From Candidatus Saccharimonadales bacterium (GTDB lineage Bacteria; Patescibacteriota; UBA1384; 2-12-FULL-50-11): a stretch of DNA of 64,000 bases. Shown here one piece after another: positions 3,420 to 56,699 of this stretch. The stretch spans positions 96,104 through 160,103 of the forward strand of contig DATIHX010000008.1 of NCBI GenBank assembly GCA_035480235.1, read 5' to 3'. Below the pieces are notes generated by a model. That model was not told the origin of the DNA. It did no database searches and saw only the letters and a list, made by a program, of their open reading frames with translations. Within the stretch, counting starts at the first letter, position 1. Each line of letters begins with the position of its first letter. The position numbers and the translations under genes are program-made.

Positions 3420-4268
3420 TTAGCCGCCAGAAGCGGCTGCCGCTGCGGACGCAGAAGCAGACGCCGAGGCGCTGGATGAACTCGACGACGAGCTGCTGCT
3501 CGAGGACGAGTTGTTGATGTTGTCGGACCGGCGAACCAACATGCCAATTGGGAAGGACGCCACTTTCAGAAAGTCCAGGACGTTGTCCCAGAAACTCTTG
3601 CTGTACACCCACTCGCGATCAGCCTGCAAATTGCCGGTGATCCTCAGGTGGTAGTGGCCCTGCTCGGCCGGCGGAACGGTGATGTTAATATCGCGCAGCT
3701 CAGGGACGAGCTGTTGGATAATCACATCATGTTCCACTGTAACTGCGTAGGGCTTGGGAATCTCGACCGTTTGGACGACGACTCGCTCTTCAGTCCAGAC
3801 CGGCACCGTCAACCTAACCACAAACGGGTAGGGTAACGGGTTGCCGCAGTTGTGCACCCAGCGGACAGTGGCACTAACCAACCAAACCCCGTCGCGTTGA
3901 ACGCGATCGTTGATGGTGGCGACCAGCAACTCACCTGCCCGGAGCTTGCCGGTACGAGTGTACTTCTTCTGCCCATCCCAAAACGCCAATTGCATCTTGG
4001 GGATGTCATAGTTGAAGCTGAAGCTAATCGTCTCATCGGCCTTATCCCGCGACAACGAGTGGAAGAACGGCAGCAACTCGTTCGAAGTGATCTCCGGAGT
4101 TAGACCGCCCTTGATGAAGGGGTGGCTGTCGAGCCTGAAGAAGCCTTGACCGTCCACCGGTTCGGGTTCCTGCGCAAAGAGCATTGCTGTCGCCCGTCGA
4201 GGTTTCAACAAAGCTGCGCCAGCGGCCGTGATGGCCGCCCCTAAAAGAAACTGACGACGTGTCATCAC
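3420..4268 (-). CDS. secreted protein with a twin-arginine (Tat) signal and a poly-Ser/Ala tail
   Basis: N-terminus MMTRRQFLLGAAITAAGAALL. C-terminus is S14 followed by ASASASASAAAAASGG. Confidence 0.75.
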   Translation of the reverse strand: MMTRRQFLLGAAITAAGAALLKPRRATAMLFAQEPEPVDGQGFFRLDSHPFIKGGLTPEITSNELLPFFHSLSRDKADETISFSFNYDIPKMQLAFWDGQKKYTRTGKLRAGELLVATINDRVQRDGVWLVSATVRWVHNCGNPLPYPFVVRLTVPVWTEERVVVQTVEIPKPYAVTVEHDVIIQQLVPELRDINITVPPAEQGHYHLRITGNLQADREWVYSKSFWDNVLDFLKVASFPIGMLVRRSDNINNSSSSSSSSSSSSSASASASASAAAAASGG

Positions 4269-5209
4269 TTACCTCCTTGCGGCCTCGTTCGCCGCACCTC
4301 ACACTGGTCGATGTTAATATTGGACAAGACTTCCATCTTGACCCAGACCCGGTGATAGCTGTCGGCACCAGAGCCGATCACCACCACCTCGACGACAGAT
4401 GCCGTCGCGACGACTTGGCCGTTGACGTAAACGGTTAGTTGTTCGCGAAGATTTGGAACCGGTTCGTTGCAACTCCACTTGATTGGCAGATAGCGGCAGA
4501 GCTTGATCGGAGCCGAATTGGCACCAACCTTTTCTTCCCGAAGCCGATTGTTTTCGTCGGTCAAGTCTTTAATGCGACGCATCAGATCGTCGGTATTGGC
4601 GCCACCTGTTTGGGCAGCGTCGCGTTTCCCTTGATCGTAAGCTTGCTTAATCGCCGCGTCGAGCTGACCAGCAGTCATGGATTGACCACCCTTGGTGGTT
4701 GCTACCGTTTCTGGAGCGTCAGTGTCGATGACGAACTGCGTTGCCGGAGCAGCTGAGGCGTCCTTATTCTGGTTGCCTTTACTGTCCTGGCCGACGAAGT
4801 AGGCTTCGATCGAATGTTCCAAGCCAAAGAACATGTCGTCGACCTGGATGTCGTGCGCGTTATGATTGGAAAGACCTTTGACGTGGATCTCCTCGTCCTT
4901 AAGCGCTCTAATACAACCACCACGAGGAAGACGAATTCTCCCTTGGTACGGTGGCGCATCAAATACGGCAACAATCGAGCCGTCAAAACGGATGCCGCAT
5001 GGACCAGGGTTGTGATCACCAGTCAGCGGCAAAACCCGGTAGTCCAGGTACGGACCGAGCAAGTCTTCACCAAGCCGGACCGCAACTCGGCCTTGACTGG
5101 TGTAGCGAATGTGCCATGACCCTATGAGCGCTGGCTTGACAGCCGCATTCGCTGACAAAGACAGCCCTAGGGTGAGAACGACGAAAATCAAAGCAAGAAT
5201 TTTTCTCAC
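4265..5209 (-). CDS. secreted hypothetical protein (Sec signal peptide)
   Basis: GTG start with AGGAG upstream. Signal peptide MRKILALIFVVLTLGLSLSANA. A 4-nt overlap with the downstream gene suggests translational coupling. Confidence 0.75.
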   Translation of the reverse strand: MRKILALIFVVLTLGLSLSANAAVKPALIGSWHIRYTSQGRVAVRLGEDLLGPYLDYRVLPLTGDHNPGPCGIRFDGSIVAVFDAPPYQGRIRLPRGGCIRALKDEEIHVKGLSNHNAHDIQVDDMFFGLEHSIEAYFVGQDSKGNQNKDASAAPATQFVIDTDAPETVATTKGGQSMTAGQLDAAIKQAYDQGKRDAAQTGGANTDDLMRRIKDLTDENNRLREEKVGANSAPIKLCRYLPIKWSCNEPVPNLREQLTVYVNGQVVATASVVEVVVIGSGADSYHRVWVKMEVLSNINIDQCEVRRTRPQGGK

Positions 5210-7765: not shown

Positions 7766-7823
7766 TAAGTTAGTTGTACCTGAAATTGACGGCGAAAAAA
7801 AGCCAACCGCCGACCAACTTCCC

Positions 7824-7843
7824 GTATACGTTATAACGTATAC
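7824..7843. repeat. 20-nt perfect palindrome upstream of cysS
   Basis: GTATACGTTATAACGTATAC, 59-78 nt upstream of the cysS ATG. Confidence 0.9.
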
Positions 7844-7888: not shown

Positions 7889-8167
7889 TTACTCGTTGCC
7901 GTATTCGCTGCCGTAGGCCGGTTCGTCTTCTTCTTCCTCGGCGCGAAGGGCGTCGAGCGAGACGGTGTTTTCCTCGGCGCCGGCGGCAATTTCTTTGTCC
8001 GAGAGAAGGGCGTCGTCGGTAAGATCATCATCTATGTCGTCGCGTCCCTTTTTGGCTTTGACCGGTTCGTGGGTCATCGGTTCACCGCAGTTTGGGCAGA
8101 CGTCGCTAGCAACGCTGGTGGCGTGGCCGCAATGTTCGCAGACGTACATTTCTTCGTGATCAGACAT
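7889..8167 (-). CDS. small zinc-ribbon protein with an acidic tail
   Basis: CEHC...CPNC followed by a D/E-rich C-terminus. Confidence 0.7.
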   Translation of the reverse strand: MSDHEEMYVCEHCGHATSVASDVCPNCGEPMTHEPVKAKKGRDDIDDDLTDDALLSDKEIAAGAEENTVSLDALRAEEEEDEPAYGSEYGNE

Positions 8168-8251
8168 GATGGTTTAATTTTACTAGGAAATTTGGATTTG
8201 CAATAGAAGATGGATACCTCTCGTCTTTTTACTTAGCAACAGTAAAACAGA

Positions 8252-8275
8252 CTTGATATATTATAATATATCAAG
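8252..8275. repeat. 24-nt perfect palindrome (the core of the 54760-54799 palindrome)
   Basis: CTTGATATATTATAATATATCAAG, 85 nt upstream of the zinc-ribbon gene start. Confidence 0.9.
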
Positions 8276-8321
8276 GCGTTCGAGGGGAAAGAAGATTGTG
8301 TGTGTAAACTGGTAAGAAGCG

Positions 8322-8951
8322 TTAATTATTGTAGCTTCGGCGACCTTCGATGGCCCGGGAAAGAGTGAGTTCGTCGGCGTATTCGAGGTCACCGCCCACC
8401 GGCAGGCCGCGGGCGAGGCGGGTAACGATAATTTCTTTGCCGATTCGGCCGGCTTTGATCCGTTCGCGGATTTGTTCGTCGATATATAAGGAAGTGGCTT
8501 CGCCTTCCAGCGTTGGGTCGGGCGCCAAAATAACTTCTTTAACGCTGCCGTCTTCTAGGCGCTTGAGGAGCGATTCCACTTCCAAGTCCCCCGGCCCGAC
8601 GTTGTTGATTGGTGAAATTTGGCCGCCCAGGACGTGGTAACGGCCGTCGAACCGGGCTTTTTCTAGCGCCAGAACGTCCAGCGGTTCTTCTACTACTGCC
8701 ACTTTGTGAGCGACGCGGTCTTTGTCGGTGCAGATGTCACACGGATCGGTTTCGGCGACGATGTGGCAGATGTGGCAAGTGGTTAAGTTATCTTTGAGGG
8801 TGGAAAAAGAAGCGCCGAATTTTTTCAGTTCGTCGTCGCTCCGGCCGAGCAGGTAAAAGGTGAGGCGGTTAGCGGTTTTTGGCCCGATGCCGGGCAGCGA
8901 CGATAAGACTTCAGAGAGTCGTTGGATGGATTTGGGGAGAATCGATTTCAT
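8322..8951 (-). CDS. recR: recombination protein RecR
   Basis: HhH motif (LPGIGPKTANRL), C4 zinc finger and Toprim domain. The start is taken at the internal ATG (MKSILPK). Confidence 0.93.
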   Translation of the reverse strand: MKSILPKSIQRLSEVLSSLPGIGPKTANRLTFYLLGRSDDELKKFGASFSTLKDNLTTCHICHIVAETDPCDICTDKDRVAHKVAVVEEPLDVLALEKARFDGRYHVLGGQISPINNVGPGDLEVESLLKRLEDGSVKEVILAPDPTLEGEATSLYIDEQIRERIKAGRIGKEIIVTRLARGLPVGGDLEYADELTLSRAIEGRRSYNN

Positions 8952-9001
8952 CGCTTCGTCATTGTACTGGAAAAATCGAGCGTGGAAACATGGCAAGCCT
9001 C

Positions 9002-11891: not shown

Positions 11892-12075
11892 CAGCCAGGG
11901 CTGCCGTTCTATTCCAAAGGACAAGGGGCTTTTTGCGAGGCAGCCCCTTATCCTGTGGAGACTCCAATCCCTTCTCGCTTCTCTACGAGGTAAGGAGAAA
12001 ACCTCCGACTGCAAACCGGCAAATGGCACTGTTTGCTCCTCCGGTTTTAGGAACTATTTTATAGGCGACAAAAAG
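11892..12075 (+). ncRNA. structured intergenic repeat family, copy A
   Basis: Shares a conserved core and helices with 16825-17008, 38781-38971 and 51192-51383 (see findings). Confidence 0.6.
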
Positions 12076-12087
12076 AGAGGTAATACC

Positions 12088-13991: not shown

Positions 13992-14013
13992 ATTATATCT
14001 TTAAAGATATAAT
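13992..14013. repeat. 22-nt perfect palindrome
   Basis: ATTATATCTTTAAAGATATAAT. Confidence 0.9.
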
Positions 14014-14040: not shown

Positions 14041-14074
14041 TACTACGTTATGCTTTATAAAGCATAACGTAGTA
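14041..14074. repeat. 34-nt perfect palindrome
   Basis: TACTACGTTATGCTTTATAAAGCATAACGTAGTA. Confidence 0.9.
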
Positions 14075-14158: not shown

Positions 14159-14187
14159 TTGACAGATCTTCCAAAAAATAGTATATT
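14159..14187 (+). promoter_or_regulatory. consensus -35 promoter
   Basis: TTGACA, 17 nt, TATATT. Confidence 0.7.
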
Positions 14188-14291
14188 TCCCTTACTTTCT
14201 GCGCTACGTGCGGCGCCCTGGTCCAGTAATTTACGATTGGGGTATATACATAGTAACAAGCTCGTTCGAGCGTAGGAGGGAACAAGGAAAG

Positions 14292-14317
14292 GCCGCCAGC
14301 AATGGTGGCTTTTTCTT
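14292..14317 (+). terminator. intrinsic terminator inside the leader (attenuator or sRNA end)
   Basis: GCCGCCA-GCAA-TGGTGGC followed by TTTTTCTT. It lies ~57 nt before the ATG at 14374. Confidence 0.7.
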
Positions 14318-14373
14318 AATGACAACTGACGTGGTAATTGATAGAATAACTCCAACGACTGTTTGGAGGAATA

Positions 14374-16824: not shown

Positions 16825-17008
16825 CAGCCAAGGCTACAGTTTTCATTGGAAAGGACAGGGGGCCTATTTGCGAGGCAGCCCCCTATCCTCTCCACTCCAA
16901 CCCCTGCACGCTTCTCACAGAGGTGTGGTGAAAACCTCCGGCTGCAAACCGGCAACTGGCACTGTTTGCTCCTACGGTTTTAGGAACTATTTAATAGCTA
17001 CAAAAAAG
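16825..17008 (+). ncRNA. structured intergenic repeat family, copy B
   Basis: Same architecture as copy A. Confidence 0.6.
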
Positions 17009-17416: not shown

Positions 17417-18528
17417 GAGGCGAAGACGAATTTTTTGTGGCGGATGTGGATGGATTCGAGGATACCGAGGGCGGCGAGGTCGACGATAATGGCAGTGCCG
17501 CCGTAGGACATGAACGGCAATGGGATACCGGTAACGGGCAGTAGCCCGACGTTAATGCCGATATGAACCACTACTTGAAATAAGAGTTTGGCGGCAATAC
17601 CGATGGCCACGAGCTGGCCGAACGGGTCGGTCGACTCTCGGGCAATCGCCAGCACCCGCAAAATTAAGAAGGCGTAGAGGCCGAGCAGGATCATCGAGCC
17701 GACAAAACCGGTGGCTTCAGCGTAGCCGGCGAAGATAAAGTCGGCGTGCGGCACCGGTAAAAAGTTAAGGACCGTTTGCGAGCCTTGGCCGAAACCGCGG
17801 CCGGTCAGCCCGCCCGAACCGACGGCGATCAGGGCCTGGCGGACGTTATAGCCTTGACCCTCTGGGTCGGAAGCGGGGTTGAGAAATGTTGCGACCCGGT
17901 TTTTTTGGTAGGGCTTGAGGTGTCCCCAGGCCAGTGGGACAGCGACCACGAACAGCGCCGCGATCACGGCGAGCGTTCGCCAGTTCGGCTTGGCCGCTAA
18001 AAACAGGACGAGAAAGATCGTTAACAAGCAACCAGCGGTACCGAGGTCGGGCTGGGCCAGAACCAAACCAAAAGAGGCAACGGCCAGTAAAATATATAGA
18101 GTGGCGGCGCGCCAACTAACCTTGCCAATTCGTCCGCTCAAAAACTTGGCTCCAAAAATAATCGCGATCAGCTTGAAAATTTCGGCCGGCTGGACTTGAA
18201 AAAACCCTAGCGTCAGCCAACGGTGGGCGCCAAAAACCTTCAACACAAACGGCAGATGACTGGCCCACATCGGCAAAAGCGGCAACAGTAAAAGTAGGCC
18301 GATAATAAAGAGGGTTGAACTGACCGAGCCGATCGCCCGGTAGTCCGAGAACATAAAAATCGCCATGAAAACCAGGCCGATAAACGCGTATAGCAGCTGG
18401 CTGAGCGCTAACGAGGCGTGATGAGCAGCAAAGGTAATGGTGTAAATAGTGACGATGCCGGTGAGGAGTAACAAGAGCGGGATGAGAAGGGAGAACCAGT
18501 CAATTGGCAAGCTAAAGAGCTTGCGCAT
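17413..18528 (-). CDS. rodA: SEDS family peptidoglycan polymerase (RodA-like)
   Basis: FtsW/RodA/SpoVE family pattern of 10 TM helices, located outside the dcw cluster. Confidence 0.88.
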   Translation of the reverse strand: MRKLFSLPIDWFSLLIPLLLLLTGIVTIYTITFAAHHASLALSQLLYAFIGLVFMAIFMFSDYRAIGSVSSTLFIIGLLLLLPLLPMWASHLPFVLKVFGAHRWLTLGFFQVQPAEIFKLIAIIFGAKFLSGRIGKVSWRAATLYILLAVASFGLVLAQPDLGTAGCLLTIFLVLFLAAKPNWRTLAVIAALFVVAVPLAWGHLKPYQKNRVATFLNPASDPEGQGYNVRQALIAVGSGGLTGRGFGQGSQTVLNFLPVPHADFIFAGYAEATGFVGSMILLGLYAFLILRVLAIARESTDPFGQLVAIGIAAKLLFQVVVHIGINVGLLPVTGIPLPFMSYGGTAIIVDLAALGILESIHIRHKKFVFAS

Positions 18529-18947
18529 TACAGCTCGCCGTCTAAGGCGAGGTTGCCCAATTCGTCGGCCCGTTGGTTTTGCTCGCGACGGACGTGAACA
18601 AAACTCACCAGGTTATCGGCTTGCTCTAGTTTCATTTTTAATTTTTGAATCGCCTCAAAATGCGGCCGGAGCTCAGCGTTTTTCATTTTGTACTCGCCGT
18701 TCAGCTGCTTGACCATTAGCTCCGAGTCGGCAAAACAGGTAATTTCGTCGCTTCGCGGCGCCAGATCGTTCAGTTTAGTTAAGGCCGCCAGCAACGCTTG
18801 ATATTCGGCCTGGTTGTTGGTGGTGGCGGGAATGGTTTCGGCGTGCTCAATTATATCAGCCGCGGGAATTTCGATGACGTAGGCGATGGCTGCTGGGCCG
18901 GGGTTACCACGAGCGGCGCCGTCGGTGTGGATACGAATTTCAGCCAT
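18528..18947 (-). CDS. rnhA: ribonuclease HI
   Basis: IHTDGAARGNPGPAA...QAEY... RNase H fold motifs. Confidence 0.9.
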   Translation of the reverse strand: MAEIRIHTDGAARGNPGPAAIAYVIEIPAADIIEHAETIPATTNNQAEYQALLAALTKLNDLAPRSDEITCFADSELMVKQLNGEYKMKNAELRPHFEAIQKLKMKLEQADNLVSFVHVRREQNQRADELGNLALDGEL

Positions 18948-18984: not shown

Positions 18985-20010
18985 CTACGGAGTGACGTTA
19001 CCGGTTCCCCCATAGACATTAAAGTCGTAGATACTAAGTAAAGTGCCGGATTTGCGGTCGACGGTGGCCAACAGCGTCCGTTTGGTGGCGCCGGCGTAAC
19101 CGGTGGCGGTGATTTTGCTGACGGTGGAATCGAAGTTAACGTTGGCGCTGGTGGTGCCGCTGGAGCTGGTGACGGTGGAAAAGGTGGCGCCGACGCTGCC
19201 CAAATTGTAACAACTGGAGCCGACGCCGCTGGTGCCGAGTGGCCGAATGCGCAAAGTGCTCGCCACGCTGCCGCCGCCGGTACCGCCTCGTATCAGCAAA
19301 TTGGTTCCCTGGGCTGCCGAGTCGTAAGTGGGCTGGCTGCCGATTTGGCTAACGACCACTTGTGGCTGGAATTGAGTGCCGCTACCGTTTTGGTTGATTT
19401 GTTGAATCGTCACCGAGCAGCCGCTGGGGTTGCCGGTCCAGCTGAATTGATAGCGAAGATAATAGTCGTTGGTTGAATCGGGAAAACCGGTTAATTCCAA
19501 GCTGTCGTCTTGGGCGATCGGGCTGGCTAATGTCAGAGCGGCGTTGGTGGTTTTGTAGTCGACTTTCAAGTCGTAGTATTGGTGAACTGGGTTGTAGCCG
19601 CTGGTCGAGGTGATGGTAGTGTTATCCTGAACGTTGCCAACGGCACTGCCGGCGGTTAGGTCGTAGCGCTCAGCAGTACTTAAGACAGCCCCGTTGGTGT
19701 CGCGGCGAATGGTGTCGACGTTGCGGCCGAACCTAAAGCGAACCAAGCCGTCTTCGATGCCGGCTTTGGCGGCGTAATAAGCAGCGACGTTATCTTCGTC
19801 GGCCGACGACTGGCCAAACTGCACCAGCGCCAACCGCTGAACGCCGAGGGTTACCGTGACGATGCCGGCCACCACCAGCATAACGAAAATTAGACTACTC
19901 GCCGAGGATCGGCGAGCAGAATTACTGAATCTTCGAATTACTGAATTACTGATTTTTTCCGGATTTAGTAATTTAGTCATTGAGTTATTACGTAATTCTT
20001 TCTTAGTCAT
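18985..20010 (-). CDS. pilin-like/minor pilin protein with an AT-rich-encoded leader
   Basis: The start is taken at the ATG overlapping the upstream stop (ATGA). N-terminus MTKKELRNNSMTKLLNPEKISNSVIRRFSNS followed by a hydrophobic helix. Confidence 0.6.
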   Translation of the reverse strand: MTKKELRNNSMTKLLNPEKISNSVIRRFSNSARRSSASSLIFVMLVVAGIVTVTLGVQRLALVQFGQSSADEDNVAAYYAAKAGIEDGLVRFRFGRNVDTIRRDTNGAVLSTAERYDLTAGSAVGNVQDNTTITSTSGYNPVHQYYDLKVDYKTTNAALTLASPIAQDDSLELTGFPDSTNDYYLRYQFSWTGNPSGCSVTIQQINQNGSGTQFQPQVVVSQIGSQPTYDSAAQGTNLLIRGGTGGGSVASTLRIRPLGTSGVGSSCYNLGSVGATFSTVTSSSGTTSANVNFDSTVSKITATGYAGATKRTLLATVDRKSGTLLSIYDFNVYGGTGNVTP

Positions 20011-20816
20011 ATTGCTCCCGGCACCACCGTGGTATCTAAAGTGTAACAGGTGCCGGCGCCGAGGGTGGCGCAAGTTTGGGCAGCATCGCCGGCCGGTTTC
20101 AGATCGAAGTGGATTTTGACGTACGGCGAAGCCGTGGCGCTTTTGGCAGCGGCGATGTCGAGACCGCTAAAGACCGGCGTCAGGCCGCCAAGGCCGTCGG
20201 CGACGTAGGCGCTGCTCAACAAGTCGGCCGGGGTGGCTGGTGGGCTGGCCGCCGCACACGGCGCGGTTTGGCTGGCGACCACGGGGTTGCCGCCGCCAAG
20301 TGGGGTGCAAACCGACAAGCCGCGCAACTCGTAGACGTAAACGCTTGGCCGGTTATTGAGGGTTTGGGCGGCGTAGAGGCGCCAAACCAAATCCCCTGCC
20401 CCGGTGGCGCCTGGGTACTTCAACAGCAGTTCGGCTTCGTCACAGCCAAAAGCGTTACCCAACCGAACGCCCGTAAAGATGCTAGCCGGCGAGCCGCAGC
20501 TGCTTTTGAGCGAAGCTGGTTGGTCGACGGTATCCACGTAGTGCAAGTCGTTGGTGAGTTGGTCAGTCACCGACCGAGCGGCTTGAACTTGGGCCCGGAC
20601 GACGTTACTTTGGCTGCTAGAGCTGACCGAACGGGCAAAAGCGGCAATGGCCAGAACGATGAGGCCGGAAAAGATCAGCACCGAGACCAGGAGTTCGATG
20701 AGGGTGTAGGCTCGGCGAGAAGCTCTCGCCGAATGACTAAATCTCTGAATTACTGAATTACTGAGTCTATTTAGTAATTTAGTAATTTCGTAATTTCGTA
20801 ATTTTTTTCTGATCAT
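20007..20816 (-). CDS. type IV pilin-like protein (pseudopilin)
   Basis: 36-aa leader, then YTLIELLVSVLIF. ATGA overlap with the upstream gene. Confidence 0.75.
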   Translation of the reverse strand: MIRKKLRNYEITKLLNRLSNSVIQRFSHSARASRRAYTLIELLVSVLIFSGLIVLAIAAFARSVSSSSQSNVVRAQVQAARSVTDQLTNDLHYVDTVDQPASLKSSCGSPASIFTGVRLGNAFGCDEAELLLKYPGATGAGDLVWRLYAAQTLNNRPSVYVYELRGLSVCTPLGGGNPVVASQTAPCAAASPPATPADLLSSAYVADGLGGLTPVFSGLDIAAAKSATASPYVKIHFDLKPAGDAAQTCATLGAGTCYTLDTTVVPGAI

Positions 20817-25064: not shown

Positions 25065-25129
25065 TAGAAATCTCCGATTTCTAGAATTACTAAATTACTG
25101 AATTTTTCCGGATTTAGTAATTTAATCAT
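25064..25129 (-). other. 21-codon AT-rich mini-ORF whose stop overlaps the pilC start (TAGTG)
   Basis: MIKLLNPEKFSNLVILEIGDF*. The nucleotide module is shared with the pilin leaders. Confidence 0.4.
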
Positions 25130-25197
25130 TTTGCGAAGTGATAACAGAGCGAATGTAAATGGATAATACATTTAGTAATTTAGTAATTATTTCCTCG

Positions 25198-33040: not shown

Positions 33041-33692
33041 CGAGCCGGAAGAGTCCGTAAGTCATAAAACCGAAGCCAGTTCCCGGCCCGATGGCCGAAT
33101 TCAGTTCTTTAATTTCAAGGTTATTTTCTTTCGCTAATTCCGGCAGTAACTTTAAATCTGCAAAATCACCCCAAGAAAGATATACTCTTGCCCCCGGCTT
33201 TAGATGACTTTTTAACTCACGGAAAAATCGTTTAGTTGCTTGGTTGTTTTCGTCCCAAAAACAGATTTCGGTTTTATTGGATGGTTTTTTAGCCGTAAAA
33301 GGTGGATTGATTGTTATTACGTCGAATTTTTTGTCTTTCACTGGTTCAAATAAATCCCCTTCGATGAACTCGATATTCTTCAGTCCTAATTTCTTTTTAT
33401 TAAAGTTAGCGTTCTTGACCGCTTCTGGATTAAGGTCAACACCAATAACGTGACCCGCTCCGAGCGTGGCTGCTTTTAGGGCAATAACTCCCATTCCAGT
33501 ACACAGGTCAAGCACCTCGTCGCCTTTATAAACCTCCATTACCTCACACATCAATCGACTATCTGAGCCGCCGCCATAGACGTGAGGAAAGATTGTTAGG
33601 TCTAAATCCACCAAGTTCTTATCGTATGGGTCACTTAGTGTACTGATTTTTTTAATTTCTTCCGCCTGACGTTGCAAAGACGCTTTTGTCAT
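33027..33692 (-). CDS. class I SAM-dependent methyltransferase (NPPF type)
   Basis: DLCTGMGVIAL motif I and ITINPPF motif IV. The start ATG overlaps the SET gene stop. Confidence 0.85.
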   Translation of the reverse strand: MTKASLQRQAEEIKKISTLSDPYDKNLVDLDLTIFPHVYGGGSDSRLMCEVMEVYKGDEVLDLCTGMGVIALKAATLGAGHVIGVDLNPEAVKNANFNKKKLGLKNIEFIEGDLFEPVKDKKFDVITINPPFTAKKPSNKTEICFWDENNQATKRFFRELKSHLKPGARVYLSWGDFADLKLLPELAKENNLEIKELNSAIGPGTGFGFMTYGLFRLDETN

Positions 33693-34189
33693 CTCATTTT
33701 TCCTAGGATAAACCAGGCGAAGTTGTTGCCGTATTTTTGTTGGAGCTCCGGCTTTTGCCAATCACGGCCGGTAATATGATGGCGGCACGTGGGGTTGCCA
33801 CAGCTACACTCAAAGTTATCGTCGTTATTAAAAATCGTGGCGTAGTCGACGCTTAACTCTTCACCGGCGTGAATATCCCGTAGAGCCACGCAGGCGATTT
33901 GCCCATTGATAGCCATATTCGGCTCACAGCAGTGGTTGAAGAAAATCATCGACTCTTCGAACTCGTCCTTAGTCAGCGGAGCCATATAAATATCATCGGT
34001 AATTTGAATATGAGAGTGATTAACAATATCCCAATTAGCCTCTAGAGTTGCCCGGTCAATTAGATGGCCATTTTTAACGGCTAATAGCTCACCTTTTTTA
34101 ATAGCCTCTTTTGCAAAAAAACCTCGGCCGCTGATGTGGCTCGGCTTTCCTTTTTCGGTCTTTGGTGAAATCCACGAAGCAACACTCAT
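33689..34189 (-). CDS. SET-domain protein (putative lysine methyltransferase)
   Basis: GRGFFA..., FFNHCCEPN, ELSVDY and post-SET CSCGNPTCR. Confidence 0.85.
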   Translation of the reverse strand: MSVASWISPKTEKGKPSHISGRGFFAKEAIKKGELLAVKNGHLIDRATLEANWDIVNHSHIQITDDIYMAPLTKDEFEESMIFFNHCCEPNMAINGQIACVALRDIHAGEELSVDYATIFNNDDNFECSCGNPTCRHHITGRDWQKPELQQKYGNNFAWFILGKMR

Positions 34190-38428: not shown

Positions 38429-38457
38429 TTGACGGCTAGGGCGGCGTTTGGTATCAT
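38429..38457 (+). promoter_or_regulatory. promoter giving a leaderless or near-leaderless transcript
   Basis: TTGACG, 17 nt, TATCAT. The ATG lies 8 nt after the -10. Confidence 0.6.
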
Positions 38458-38465
38458 ATACCTAC

Positions 38466-38750
38466 ATGCCTTTTGAAGACAAAACCCTCAAGTGCAAAGA
38501 GTGCGGCCAAGATTTTATATGGACGGCCGGCGAGCAGCAATTTTTTGCCGACAAAGGTTTTACTAATAAGCCGACCCGCTGCAAAGACTGCCGCAAGATG
38601 AACCGCCAAAAAGTGGAAGCGGAATACTACAAAATTACCTGTTCTGATTGCGGCCAGATCGGCGAGGCGATGTTTAAGCCGAAAGATCCAGATGCCAAGA
38701 TTTATTGCAAAAACTGCTTCGAAACCCGCTTTTTGACGAAGGCAGCCTAG
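38466..38750 (+). CDS. double zinc-ribbon protein
   Basis: CKECG...CKDC and CSDCG...CKNC. Confidence 0.75.
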   Translation: MPFEDKTLKCKECGQDFIWTAGEQQFFADKGFTNKPTRCKDCRKMNRQKVEAEYYKITCSDCGQIGEAMFKPKDPDAKIYCKNCFETRFLTKAA

Positions 38751-38780
38751 GCTGCAGAACTATTTTTTATTTACTGTCTT

Positions 38781-38971
38781 ATGTGGCTAGCGCCACTGAC
38801 TATTATTTGAGGGTGAGGGGGCTAATTTGCTAAGCCGCCCCCTACACCCTCAAACTCCCTACCCCCGCAAGCTTCCTTTGCGGGGCAGTGGTGCAAGCTG
38901 ATGGCTGTCAACCGGCAACTGGCACTGTTTCCTCCATCAGCTTGAAGAACTATTTTATCGGCGGCAAAAAA
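38781..38971 (+). ncRNA. structured intergenic repeat family, copy C
   Basis: See findings. Confidence 0.6.
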
Positions 38972-45667: not shown

Positions 45668-45733
45668 TCAATAAAGAATTATTAAATTACTGAATTTTTG
45701 AATTACAAAATTAGAATTGAGTAATTTAGTCAT
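45668..45733 (-). other. 21-codon AT-rich mini-ORF ending 1 nt before the argS ATG
   Basis: MTKLLNSNFVIQKFSNLIILY*. The module is shared with the pilin leaders. Confidence 0.4.
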
Positions 45734-45822
45734 TGAGTTATTTAGTAATTTGGCCAGGCGGAATTGATCGTACCGACTAAACAACAACCCCAGTATATTC
45801 TTCACTTAGCCAATCAGCAACA

Positions 45823-51187: not shown

Positions 51188-51191
51188 GATT

Positions 51192-51383
51192 CTTTTTGCC
51201 GTCAATACAATAGTTCCTAAAACCGGAGGAGGAAACAGTGCCAGTTGCCGGTTGACAGCCGGAGGTTTTCTCCTTGTTCCCGACCAGGGAAGCGTGCCGG
51301 GGTACGGGGGTTTGGGGGCCTAGGGGGCGGCGTCGCAATAAGCCCCCTGGCCCCCAAATAATAGTAAGTGGCGCTAGCCACAT
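51192..51383 (-). ncRNA. structured intergenic repeat family, copy D
   Basis: Inverted orientation. It begins 10 nt after the radA stop. Confidence 0.6.
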
Positions 51384-51393
51384 AAAATGGTGA

Positions 51394-53040: not shown

Positions 53041-54720
53041 TCAAGAGTTTCGAGTGACTTTTTCAATCCTGTGATCGGTCGGCTGGTAGTCGGCGAGTTT
53101 GAATTGTAAACGAGTATTACCGTTCCAGTGGTTTTGCTCCAAAGCGCCAAAAAGGTGGGCGGTAGTATGCGGCGATTCGGCGAAACGGCCGGCCAGCCCA
53201 AAACCAACCACTTCCAAATCTCGGCCGTCCAATTTAGCTTGCCATTTCAAATGCCTGCCGTCTTTACCCATCGTCCGCGGGCTGTCGAGCTTGGCATATT
53301 TAATAATGAATTTTGGTGACGGATTAGCTTGCCCAAACGGCGCCAATTTTTCCACTGCCTTGGCAGTTGTTAAACTAACTTCGTCCGGGGTTAAAATCGC
53401 GTCGGCCGTTAAGACCGGCACTAAATCTTCTGGCGCAATATTTTTTTTGGCGTGAGCTTTCAAACTATCAACGAATTTTGGCAGCTCGGTTTTTTTCAGC
53501 CGTAAACCGGCGGCTTGCTGATGGCCACCGTGACTAAGTAGGTGCTCGGCTGAGAAATCCAAGCCGTCAATGATTGAGTACTCGCCGATCGACCGAGCGC
53601 TGCCGGTCAATTCCTCGCCCTGACCAGTCAAAATAACCACTGGTCGGTTGTGCCGATAACTAAGTTTGCCGGCTGAGAGACCAATCACCCCGGCCGGCCA
53701 AGCATCGCCGGCTATCACAAAAAGATGGTCGTCAATTTTATTTTGAGCCCACAACGCCTTCTCGGCTTCCGCCGTCGCGGTTTCCATTACCCCTTGGCGT
53801 TCGGTATTGAGTTGGTTAATGATTCGAGCTTTTTCTTGGGCCTCTTCGATGGTTTTGGCCATCAATAATTCAAAGGCCGGGTAGTTGTCGCCCATTCGGC
53901 CGGAAGCGTTAAGGCGCGGCCCCAAAACGTAGCCCAAATTTTCGGCCGAAAGTTTAAGCGGATCGAGGCCAGCGATATCAAGCAAAGCTTGTAAACCTAG
54001 TCGCTGAGTTTTACGCAACACTTGCAAACCGTAGTGAACGAGCAAGCGGTTCTCGCCCTTCATCACCATCATGTCGGCGACGGTCGAGATGGCCACTAAA
54101 TCTAAAAGCCACTTGCGAAAACCTTCGGTCAATATGCCAGGGAAATCGGCCGAAAGCGCTTCCACAAACTTGTAAGCCAAGGCGCAGCCGCAGAGATAGT
54201 TGAATGGGTACTTCGAGCCGGGGACGTACGGGTCGATCACGGCGTCGGCCGGCGGTAATTCGGTTTTCGGCAAGTGATGATCGAGGACAATCACTGCTAG
54301 GCCGAGTTTTTTGGCGAGCGTGATTTCTTCAACGGCCGCGATGCCGGTATCAACGGTAATTAATAATTGTGACGATTTGGCCGCTATTTCAACGTCTTTC
54401 AATTTCAAGCCGTAGCCATCGGCCCGGGTGGGAATGACCACCTTATACCGAAGTCCGAGCCGTTCCATCAAAGTCGCCAGCACCGCTGAGGCGGGTGTGC
54501 CGTCGGCGTCGTAATCACCGAAGATTGTCACGAACCATTTGGCTTTGACGGCTTTTTTCATTAATTCCCGGGCCGCTTTCATATCGGGCAACAAATTTGG
54601 GTCGTGCAGATTGGCAAAATCGAGCGCCAAATCGGTTTCGGTGAGTCCGCGAATTTTGGACAAGTGCGTTACTAAATCGTCATCTTGGCGGGCGTAAACC
54701 CGCCATCTGGTTTTTGGCAT
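53041..54720 (-). CDS. recJ: single-stranded-DNA-specific exonuclease RecJ
   Basis: DHH family motifs (GDYDADG, VLDHH) and a DHHA1 domain. ATG at 54720; the alternative GTG is at 54729. Confidence 0.93.
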   Translation of the reverse strand: MPKTRWRVYARQDDDLVTHLSKIRGLTETDLALDFANLHDPNLLPDMKAARELMKKAVKAKWFVTIFGDYDADGTPASAVLATLMERLGLRYKVVIPTRADGYGLKLKDVEIAAKSSQLLITVDTGIAAVEEITLAKKLGLAVIVLDHHLPKTELPPADAVIDPYVPGSKYPFNYLCGCALAYKFVEALSADFPGILTEGFRKWLLDLVAISTVADMMVMKGENRLLVHYGLQVLRKTQRLGLQALLDIAGLDPLKLSAENLGYVLGPRLNASGRMGDNYPAFELLMAKTIEEAQEKARIINQLNTERQGVMETATAEAEKALWAQNKIDDHLFVIAGDAWPAGVIGLSAGKLSYRHNRPVVILTGQGEELTGSARSIGEYSIIDGLDFSAEHLLSHGGHQQAAGLRLKKTELPKFVDSLKAHAKKNIAPEDLVPVLTADAILTPDEVSLTTAKAVEKLAPFGQANPSPKFIIKYAKLDSPRTMGKDGRHLKWQAKLDGRDLEVVGFGLAGRFAESPHTTAHLFGALEQNHWNGNTRLQFKLADYQPTDHRIEKVTRNS

Positions 54721-54759
54721 GAGCCCCACTGTAACACAAGTTCAAAAATACTCTTCGCT

Positions 54760-54799
54760 CACGTACCCTTGATATATTATAATATATCAAGGGTACGTG
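54760..54799. repeat. 40-nt perfect palindrome upstream of recJ
   Basis: CACGTACCCTTGATATATTATAATATATCAAGGGTACGTG. The inner 24 nt are identical to 8252-8275. Confidence 0.92.
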
Positions 54800-54946
54800 T
54801 TTTATGCTTTGCGGGAATACCTCAATTGGTAAGCCGCGCGGGGGAGCAGTCACCGAAGGCGAAGCGGCAGGCGAAGAAGTAGCTGCCAAGGGCGAAAGTC
54901 TGGGAGATTCATTGATGAGTCCAGCTCACAACACCGGCTATCTTGG

Positions 54947-55744
54947 TTATTGGACATAAGCGCTGCCGGGAACGCGTAAATCCACATGGTCGTGGATGGC
55001 GTCGTGTTTGGCTTTGAGGATTTCTATGAGCGTTGCCACTTGGCCGGTGGCCGGTTGATCGAGGGTGAAAAGCGCACTGATTGGGCTATTAGCGGCAAAG
55101 GGGACGGTTGGGTCGGTGGAAGCGGTTAAGCTCGCCCCGACTTGAAACAAACTATCGCCGATAAATAATTGGCTGGTCGTTAAATGGCTACTGGTAAGAG
55201 CGGTAAAAAGTTCAACGTATTTTTCGACGGTTTGGCGCGAGGCCACGGTTTGGCCCAGGTGCGGGGCGCTCCCGCCGCGATCTTCTATTATTATTGCCCC
55301 GGTTGGTGGTGTGGCGGCAGCGTAGGCAAAACCGTCCGCATCAACCGCCATAATTTTATCTCCGGCCTTCCAATAGAGGGTGGCATGGCGAAGCGTAACC
55401 GCACATTTGAGCGTGCCGGGTATCCCCCGCCGGCAGTTAAGCTGCGAGAGAGTTGGCAAGCTATTTTTGACCCGCGTCACATCGGCAAACAAGGTGCCGG
55501 ATAGTAAAGAATCGCCTTTGAGTTTTTGCAAAGCGGCTACTAATTCTGGTGTGCCGCCCCCCGCTAACTCGACCGTTTGGACCCGGAAAGCCGGCAGTTG
55601 GCCGACGATATAAAATGCCACCACTAGCGCCAAAAGGCAAAAGAGCGGCCAGAGCTTACGATATTGGGAGAGGTCTAACCGGGCTGGCGGCGGCCGGTAC
55701 GACGCATTAAAAACTTTCGGCGTTCGCCGAGCTCGGCCCATCAT
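54947..55744 (-). CDS. ftsQ: FtsQ-like cell division protein (TM helix plus POTRA)
   Basis: Single TM helix followed by FRVQTVELAGG (POTRA-like). The start is uncertain (55744 or 55801) and overlaps the murB end. Confidence 0.7.
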   Translation of the reverse strand: MMGRARRTPKVFNASYRPPPARLDLSQYRKLWPLFCLLALVVAFYIVGQLPAFRVQTVELAGGGTPELVAALQKLKGDSLLSGTLFADVTRVKNSLPTLSQLNCRRGIPGTLKCAVTLRHATLYWKAGDKIMAVDADGFAYAAATPPTGAIIIEDRGGSAPHLGQTVASRQTVEKYVELFTALTSSHLTTSQLFIGDSLFQVGASLTASTDPTVPFAANSPISALFTLDQPATGQVATLIEILKAKHDAIHDHVDLRVPGSAYVQ

Positions 55745-56699
55745 CCGTTGCTGCCGCTCCCTCATCTGGCCAGTATCCCAAAAAATGGAGCCGCTCATCA
55801 AGCGGGTAGCCGCTCCCCGCCGCCAAAGCCTTCAATTCGCTGACAACTTGGCGAAAAACTTGGGCGTTAGCGCGGTCGTGCCGCCGCTTAATGAGGCCGG
55901 TCGTTGGGTCGAAATGAACGCCGAGTTTCCGCCAGCGGTTGAGGGCGGCTTTATCGTTCAATTCAACCGGCCAGTTTTGCACGAAGACTTGCCCCAGCGC
56001 CGGGCGGGCCAACAGCGGTGCCCGGGCCTGCCGAAAAGTTTTCAAGCGCCGGAGAATCTCCGTTTGGTCAATTTGGGAAAACTGGAGCCGAACGCTTAAG
56101 ATTACCGGCGTTTCGATGATTGAGTCTGGGAACATCCGCCCGAAGGCCGGGCTGGCAATTTCTGAACCGCTGACGCTAATTACCTGGCCGGCCGCGCCGC
56201 CAGGCACAAACAAAATTAATTCTTTGACCGCGCCCAAAATATGTTTGCCGGTGAAGCCGGCGTTGGTGGCTACCGCGCCGCCGAGGGTGCCTGGCACAGC
56301 CGCTAAAAACTCCAGACCGCCCAACCCTTGGGCGGCCGCCACATTTAATAATCGGTCAGTGGAAACACCCGAATCAACAACGATATGGCTGGTCTGGTGG
56401 TCGCCCATTATTCGGTTACTCCGATTAATAATGACTAGGCCAGGGAAACCGATGTCGGAGGCCAGCATCCCCGAGCCGCCGCCAACCACGGCGAGCGGCA
56501 CCCGAAACTGGCTGGCTAGCCGGGTGGCATCAATCAAGTCGGCAACGGCGTTGGCTGTCACCAAATATTCGGCCGTGCCACCTAACTTTGTAGAAAAATA
56601 CTGGCCCAGCGGCTGGTGAGCGCTAAACTGCTCACCGAAGCGAGCACGAAGTTCAGTGGTAAAACTAGCTGGTTTTTCTGGCTTTGCCCGCGCGCTCAT
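55707..56699 (-). CDS. murB: UDP-N-acetylenolpyruvoylglucosamine reductase
   Basis: FAD-binding VVGGGSGML and a MurB C-terminal domain. Confidence 0.9.
   Translation of the reverse strand: MSARAKPEKPASFTTELRARFGEQFSAHQPLGQYFSTKLGGTAEYLVTANAVADLIDATRLASQFRVPLAVVGGGSGMLASDIGFPGLVIINRSNRIMGDHQTSHIVVDSGVSTDRLLNVAAAQGLGGLEFLAAVPGTLGGAVATNAGFTGKHILGAVKELILFVPGGAAGQVISVSGSEIASPAFGRMFPDSIIETPVILSVRLQFSQIDQTEILRRLKTFRQARAPLLARPALGQVFVQNWPVELNDKAALNRWRKLGVHFDPTTGLIKRRHDRANAQVFRQVVSELKALAAGSGYPLDERLHFLGYWPDEGAAATDDGPSSANAESF

Follow-up and report, generated by a model that had tools for sequence, protein, structure and literature searches.

What is a perfect palindrome of 40 nucleotides doing just upstream of recJ in a Saccharimonadales genome, and why does its core reappear beside recR? 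Saccharibacteria have tiny genomes and few regulators, and almost none of their regulatory sites have been mapped. A sequence-only reading of the 64,000-nt stretch of DNA analysed here (hereafter the window) had drawn attention to this palindrome. It had offered several explanations for it: an operator for a dimeric regulator of DNA-repair or competence genes, a cruciform or RNase III-type hairpin, or a bidirectional -10 element.

The sequences proved to be as that reading described them. The palindrome upstream of recJ (site A; Table 1) has no spacer between its arms, and its inner 24 nt return, letter for letter, at one other place (site B), so that the core occurs exactly twice in the window. 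By chance no recurrence is expected, and none of 100 shuffles of the window gave a match; a third copy was sought in the window at up to 3 and at up to 6 mismatches, and none was found. On the minus strand, the core at site B is followed by TCTGTTTTAC. The 40-mer is present with 100% identity in an independent MAG contig (L001), and in a contig of a 99.8%-identical strain (L002) the first base falls inside the palindrome; it is therefore not a one-off assembly artefact. The mirrored artefact ORFs attributed to the palindrome, 54680-54889 on the minus and 54685-54882 on the plus strand, are likewise there and have the peptide VPLIYYNISRVR in common. A literature search found no paper with the motif, and Rfam 15, run on both sites at gathering and permissive thresholds, returned only generic miRNA-model hairpin matches far below threshold. 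A match to the motif in a viral collection was rejected as an unrelated giant-virus contig of 25% GC.

Table 1. Palindromes, spacers and associated features of the window, with the gene contexts of the 22-mer in metagenome contigs.
Feature	Position	Strand	Description
Site A	54760-54799	.	40-nt perfect zero-spacer palindrome, 20-nt arms, CACGTACCCTTGATATATTATAATATATCAAGGGTACGTG; 24-nt core plus 8-nt GC-rich outer arms CACGTACC/GGTACGTG
Core copy A	54768-54791	.	CTTGATATATTATAATATATCAAG; arms TTGATATAT/ATATATCAA around TATA
Core copy B (site B)	8252-8275	.	identical to core copy A; no extra palindromic extension
Overlapping TATAAT hexamers	54776-54783	.	at the dyad centre: 54778-54783 (+), 54781-54776 (-)
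T-rich tract	54800-54811	+	TTTTATGCTTTG; directly 3' of the hairpin, antisense to the flanking genes; terminator-like in the scan
Spacer, ftsQ-like stop to recJ ATG	54721-54946	-	226 nt, lineage-specific
Spacer, recR to zinc-ribbon gene	8168-8321	-	expanded: 154 nt against 39-47 nt in relatives
Native promoter-like block of the zinc-ribbon gene	8177-8203	-	TTGCAA-N15-TAAAAT; ends 9 nt before the ATG, downstream of the core
Orphan ORF	54804-54959	+	51 aa; starts 5 nt past the palindrome
Palindrome of 20 nt	7824-7843	.	perfect, GTATACGTTATAACGTATAC, centre TTATAA; in the expanded zinc-ribbon-to-cysS spacer
Palindrome of 34 nt	14041-14074	.	perfect, zero-spacer, centre TTATAA
Palindrome of 22 nt	13992-14013	.	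perfect, ATTATATCTTTAAAGATATAAT, centre TTTAAA
22-mer in L123			pilin-like gene beside recO, then an ORF of unknown function
22-mer in L124/L126			murJ, then lepA
22-mer in L127			cbtA, then an SRPBCC-family gene
22-mer in L129			tRNA-Ser, then a PilB-type ATPase gene

The gene neighbourhoods, too, are those first described, and all genes flanking the two sites lie on the minus strand. The RecJ and CysS sequences encoded here match proteins of a Candidatus Saccharimonadales MAG without a single difference. At site A, the order is an ftsQ-like gene (54947-55801), the palindrome and recJ (ATG at 54720), with 39 nt from palindrome to ATG. At site B, it is recR (8322-8996), the core, a gene for a 92-aa zinc-ribbon protein (ATG at 8167) and cysS, with 84 nt from the core to the zinc-ribbon ATG. 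In four relatives, whose RecJ proteins are 82, 80, 78 and 61% identical, the gap between ftsQ and recJ is only 2-6 nt and holds a GGAG-type ribosome-binding site; recJ of the window has no clear Shine-Dalgarno sequence. The recR/zinc-ribbon/cysS region was compared with that of three relatives (CysS identity 84, 76 and 73%), in which 41-57 nt separate the zinc-ribbon gene from cysS; the window has 123 nt there. In an alignment with the related locus L136, TTACTGTTGC follows the recR stop in L136 and the palindrome in the window; an insertion of about 76 nt therefore starts right after the recR stop, and the core sits at its 3' edge. The promoter-like block of the zinc-ribbon gene is kept in L136, where CTGTTGC...AAATCCAAATTT..GTAAAATTAAA is common to both sequences. 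A further insertion specific to this lineage, about 36 nt long (TAAGTAAAAAGACGAGAGGTATCCATCTTCTATTGC; window 8204-8239, minus strand), with a repeated TGC at its bounds, splits CTGTTGC from AAATCC, which are contiguous in L136.

This setting bears directly on the supposed link to DNA repair or competence. The motif is missing from the orthologous ftsQ-recJ and recR-zinc-ribbon junctions of all the relatives examined, because the DNA that bears it does not exist there. It was found neither in the relatives' loci L131-L137 (8-22 kb each), even at 6 mismatches, nor at the dprA and type IV pilus genes of the window itself. The sequence-only reading had named conservation at the orthologous promoters of relatives as the check on its proposal, and the check came out against it. 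A conserved operator of DNA-repair or competence genes is thus not supported by the sequence comparison. Other candidates for a function of the ftsQ-recJ spacer were considered separately. The 147 nt of it that lie beyond the palindrome fold no better than shuffled sequences on either strand (z about +0.5), and a small RNA or structured leader in this remainder was rejected on that ground. The 51-aa ORF was rejected as a conserved gene, having no Pfam match and 0 homologues in 1.84 billion representatives.

The other half of the operator proposal, a site for a dimeric regulator, stands up better, since the 9-4-9 arrangement of the core arms is that of an ArsR/SmtB promoter footprint. When species-representative genomes were scanned with the degenerate pattern TTGATATAT-N4-ATATATCAA, the matches listed were mostly chance ones in AT-rich DNA. 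In the Saccharimonadales locus L075, however, a gene for a 95-aa ArsR/SmtB protein (NCBIfam NF033788) has TATTGATATATT-TA-AATATATCAATA 10-13 nt ahead of its ATG. Dimers of SmtB, CzrA, CadC and ArsR bind imperfect 12-2-12 inverted repeats, and we take the 12-2-12 layout in L075 to be typical for operators of this family. A profile search of the matches listed placed an ArsR-like ORF 2-26 nt from the motif at no fewer than nine loci, belonging to Saccharimonadales, Daviesbacteria, Gammaproteobacteria, Trueperaceae, Meiothermus and Bacteroidetes; the motif precedes ArsR-like genes at this distance in at least five phyla. Among the matches listed, ArsR-adjacent loci numbered 12 of the 74 with a GC content of at least 0.35, against 0 of the 45 AT-rich ones.

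The same arrangement is seen in loci that were found by protein homology and not by the motif. Four arsR-Bac_luciferase-F420_oxidored operons (L139, L142, L144 and L145, the L142 protein being named as one of Ca. Mycosynbacter amalyticus) carry TTGAWATAT-WTAA-ATWTATCWA and then TATAAT at the same position, directly before the gene, and the DNA around the operator is otherwise unalignable. The motif on these five Saccharibacteria arsR promoters, L075 included, is a phylogenetic footprint of a putative operator overlapping the promoter, and among the arsR operons it shows the degeneracy that is normal for operators. The window core has both consensus arms perfect at the same 4-nt spacing; its arms and N4 are identical to those in L075 and differ from the other four by at most 2 mismatches. 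The operon itself, which encodes ArsR, a luciferase-like monooxygenase and an F420-dependent oxidoreductase, is conserved across Saccharibacteria with the operator footprint in its promoter (4077-4400 in L075, and around 3960-4300 or 9970-10300 in L139, L142, L144 and L145), and its upstream neighbours sometimes include an MFS transporter or cation-efflux gene.

Our preferred explanation, which we hold tentatively and would put somewhat short of an even chance, is that the core is an orphan, consensus-strength putative ArsR/SmtB operator placed over -10-like boxes and furnished with a GC clamp at recJ. The 22-24-nt core would be the dyad binding site for a winged-helix ArsR/SmtB dimer, and the cognate regulator would be encoded elsewhere in the source Saccharimonadales genome. 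The core lies between co-directional housekeeping genes, in intergenic DNA of recent acquisition, and overlaps TATAAT and TGnTATATT boxes on both strands. Because of this overlap, a bound regulator might either cover a weak promoter that has no -35 element or stop transcription of the upstream operon from continuing into recJ-radA and zinc-ribbon-cysS, and release of the regulator would then raise the expression of both gene pairs. At recJ, the site gains eight GC-rich pairs on each side, which would make it a highly stable hairpin or cruciform, and a T-run adjoins it on the antisense strand. Besides the agreement with the arsR promoters, the all-Watson-Crick symmetry that runs through the centre suits recognition of double-stranded DNA better than of RNA, and both sites are intergenic and upstream of genes.

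There are, however, several observations that an ArsR-type operator does not readily accommodate. No ArsR-like or other helix-turn-helix gene was detected among the 30 ORFs tested in the window, and none of the ArsR matches could be traced to the source MAG. The sites adjoin ftsQ and recJ, and recR and the zinc-ribbon gene, not an ArsR, transporter, monooxygenase, resistance or efflux gene, and no TATAAT follows the operator as it does in the arsR promoters. Over all 24 nt the two copies agree, even in the TATA centre and the C/G flanks, which are unconstrained in the footprint; degenerate copies, which a normal regulon would have, are absent from the window at up to 6 mismatches. Further, the symmetric flank extensions differ among six instances of the palindrome in a way that protein contacts do not explain, the orthologous junctions of relatives lack the motif, and the downstream genes retain conserved promoters of their own. 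The shape of the motif is also not exclusive to ArsR, as two alphaproteobacterial matches adjoin an Xre-type regulator. In these two Alphaproteobacteria (L058, 7085-7783; L065, 5016-5704), the degenerate pattern is followed, after about 77 nt, by a conserved gene for an Xre-type helix-turn-helix protein of about 197 aa and not by an ArsR gene.

The symmetric flanks lead to the first and strongest alternative, which we regard as somewhat unlikely: a young structural palindrome produced by a process acting on DNA, with no dedicated regulator. Its source would be a miniature palindromic mobile element, an inverted duplication or a template switch, possibly one that targets hairpin centres, and any effect as a cruciform, on insulation or on weak termination would be merely incidental. 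In fact, site A does not stand alone. Zero-spacer palindromes that are perfect over arms of 9 nt or more number five in the window; shuffles give 0.35, and other Saccharibacteria loci totalling 165 kb contain only 3. The distribution of arm lengths is normal up to 8 nt, beyond which there are outliers of 10, 11, 12, 17 and 20 nt. TTATAA, a hexamer found only 11 times in the window, is the centre of four of these palindromes, and all five lie in spacers longer than their counterparts in relatives. The palindromes of 20 and 34 nt have the outer arms TACGTTA/TAACGTA in common, and those of 34 and 40 nt each look like one palindrome nested within another. Ordinary terminators in the source genome are different in form, being GC-rich hairpins with asymmetric, non-palindromic loops and adjacent T-runs, and the perfect palindromes are therefore a separate population. 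More than 60 arm pairs include zero G-T pairs, all being Watson-Crick with symmetry through the centre, and this pattern points to symmetry at the level of DNA.

Instances from elsewhere add to this picture. Across 241 million metagenome records, exact matches to the 22-mer, AT-rich chance ones aside, were found in five further contigs of about 44-50% GC, with L124 and L126 representing the same locus. When the flanks of 7 instances were compared, nothing common was found outside the palindrome. Nevertheless, the symmetry continues past the 22-mer in all six independent instances, for 9, 1, 3, 3, 1 and 6 nt, where chance would give about 0.33 bases per instance; the extensions are perfectly complementary, differ in sequence from one instance to the next and contain no G-T pair. 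Identical copies without degenerate ones, symmetric flanks that differ and the presence of five palindromes in the window therefore leave room for a palindrome-generating or mobile process, as do the perfect-or-absent state of the copies and the occurrence of the 22-mer at non-orthologous sites. On the other hand, common flanks, terminal repeats, target-site duplications and a transposase are all lacking. The core sits within larger insertions (226 nt and about 76 nt) and was not inserted alone, two copies in 64 kb and five other contigs in the whole metagenome search are very few, and the coincidence of the arms with the ArsR footprint is left unexplained. A MITE or a larger common unit was rejected, the flanks being unrelated.

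Saccharimonadales may harbour an undescribed miniature, perfectly symmetric palindromic element with a conserved, AT-rich, TTATAA-centred core of 22-24 nt. It would be made or copied at the DNA level, would give rise to new spacers between genes that were once coupled, and might be recognised by an ArsR-type protein. Such an element might be produced by hairpin-primed or template-switch synthesis, or by insertion into the centres of existing hairpins. We consider this reading unlikely.

Several other non-coding and coding features of the window deserve mention in their own right. Between the L11 operon and dprA, at 14159-14330 (plus strand), lies a conserved non-coding stretch of about 130 nt that combines a near-consensus promoter (TTGACA-N17-TATATT, 14159-14187) with a terminator hairpin followed by a T-run. 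It has long invariant runs in common with L136 and L137, whose proteins are only 76-84% identical, and no Rfam match, and it is a candidate for an unannotated small RNA gene. A dispersed family of intergenic repeats, each about 190 nt long and 73-89% identical, has copies at 11892-12076, 16825-17007, 38779-38971 and 51191-51385, one of them inverted; it contains G/C-rich hairpins such as TTTGGGGGCCTAGGGG...CCCCCTGGCCCCCAAA, an independent MAG contig ends in its radA-side copy, and it may represent a MITE-like element or a terminator module. A second family, of short AATTACTAAATTACTGAAT-type inverted repeats (19916-20001, 20728-20807, 25084-25130 and 45685-45750), is found in or near the 5' regions of genes around the type IV pilus and pilin-like cluster and may be a shared promoter or operator element. 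Finally, the window encodes domains that are unusual for a reduced genome, in RNase H/RVT_3-like, SET-domain and treble-clef zinc-finger proteins (genes at 18528-18947, minus strand; 33689-34189, minus strand; and 38448-38750, plus strand).

The second alternative takes up the suggestion of a bidirectional -10 element. TATAAT does occur on both strands of the centre, and a consensus scan found no -35 partner for it, in agreement with the sequence-only reading. That reading had overlooked that each core arm also reads TGaTATATT, an extended -10-like box that the scan flags as TG-TATATT at site B. Consensus boxes (TATAAT and TGnTATATT) are therefore present on both strands, and a bidirectional -10 element is possible at the level of consensus. 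Under this alternative, the core would be a -35-independent bidirectional promoter, newly acquired, that uncouples recJ-radA and zinc-ribbon-cysS from their upstream operons. The extended -10 TG is in keeping with it, as is the replacement of a tight GGAG junction by the insertion before a recJ gene that has no clear Shine-Dalgarno sequence; in L126 and L129, moreover, RGGTAAAAW -10-like boxes are found about 55 nt downstream of the core centre. Yet these are consensus matches only, the downstream genes keep conserved promoters near their ATG, the distance to the start codon is inconsistent (39 against 84 nt), and a promoter needs neither perfect dyad symmetry nor a GC clamp. We judge this reading quite unlikely. 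As a separate matter, native promoters of this clade seem to hug the start codon: a -10-like RGTAAAAT or CAGGTAMAAC ends about 9-12 nt before the ATG, and such start-proximal boxes were seen in the window at 8177-8203 and 7766-7805 (both on the minus strand) and in the regions upstream in L126 and L129, which suggests leaderless or very short-leader mRNAs.

A third alternative places the function in RNA, as an intrinsic or bidirectional terminator or an RNase III site between the operon and the downstream genes. The element does lie between co-directional genes, 46-147 nt past the upstream stop codon, and long, perfectly paired stems serve as terminators in Saccharibacteria, for example in L144. 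The cruciform or RNase III hairpin of the sequence-only reading is physically plausible for the full 40-mer, with predicted folding energies of -31.5 kcal/mol as RNA (z = -9) and -17.7 kcal/mol as DNA. The 24-mer core alone, by contrast, is predicted to be weak (-10.9 and -5.6 kcal/mol, respectively), and the stem at site B has 2 GC pairs. The T-run is no more uniform. At site A it is antisense and the minus strand has no adjacent T-run; on the sense strand, a T-rich tract follows the core partially at site B and in L127, and none does in L126 or L129. A GC-rich stem with a U-tract on the transcribed strand, as expected of an intrinsic terminator, is found at neither site, and the ordinary terminators of this genome are, as described above, of another kind. 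The conserved sequence, the symmetric loop and the zero G-U pairs likewise argue against selection at the RNA level, and we find an RNA hairpin function very unlikely.

A chromosome-organisation or recombination site (parS-like, dif-like or an invertase target), although such sites are typically perfect palindromes kept identical in few copies, and although the perfect-or-none copies, their exact cross-species conservation at non-orthologous sites and a layout also readable as 11-6-11, as in dif, recall them, is scarcely credible, as the window has no canonical parS (the best match to TGTTNCACGTGAAACA has 3 mismatches, which is chance level, and parS was rejected), the core is unlike the parS consensus and, to our knowledge, resembles no dif consensus, and gene order between the sites is collinear with a relative's contig, so that inversion or recombination between the two copies was rejected as well.

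If the preferred ArsR-type operator is correct, these sites would yield a testable operator consensus, TTGAWATAT-N4-ATWTATCWA, for a widespread ArsR-family operon of Saccharibacteria, and they would show an operator recruited or copied into new spacers that split the dcw cluster from recJ-radA, and recR from zinc-ribbon-cysS. If a palindrome-forming process is responsible instead, it would represent an unrecognised source of intergenic innovation in reduced genomes. Either way, the palindromes should not be taken as the signal of a conserved DNA-repair regulon.

It is instructive to compare the two sites with systems that are already known. LexA-type SOS boxes and competence boxes are likewise palindromes upstream of recombination genes, as here before recJ-radA and beside recR; the present palindrome, unlike them, is found neither at orthologous promoters nor at the dprA and pilus genes of the window, and we know of no published LexA or CRP-S/cin-box consensus that the core resembles. 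Intrinsic and bidirectional terminators resemble site A in being hairpins between co-directional genes, with an 18-bp stem, a 4-nt loop and TTTTAT on one strand. Site A departs from them in its antisense T-run, and the core in its AT-rich, conserved sequence and self-complementary loop; several instances, moreover, have no U-tract. Dispersed palindromic repeats, such as REP/BIME, Correia and other MITEs and the Rickettsia palindromic elements, are also short intergenic palindromes that occupy non-orthologous sites and are missing in relatives. Here, however, the copy number is very low (two in 64 kb, with no RAYT among the ORFs screened), the element is much shorter than known MITEs, and of the hallmarks of MITEs and insertion sequences no terminal inverted repeats, no common flanks among 7 instances and no duplication at the relatives' junctions were found. 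ArsR/SmtB operators, finally, differ from the core in lying over the promoter of arsR or of a resistance or efflux operon, whereas neither site is beside an arsR, metal or efflux gene; the core is, in addition, perfectly symmetric including its centre, its window copies are identical rather than degenerate, and its symmetric flanks vary among instances. Yet in the half-sites themselves the likeness is close: like these operators, the core is an AT-rich dyad of about 22-26 bp, and it has the same arms at the same 4-nt spacing as the promoters of five Saccharibacteria arsR genes.
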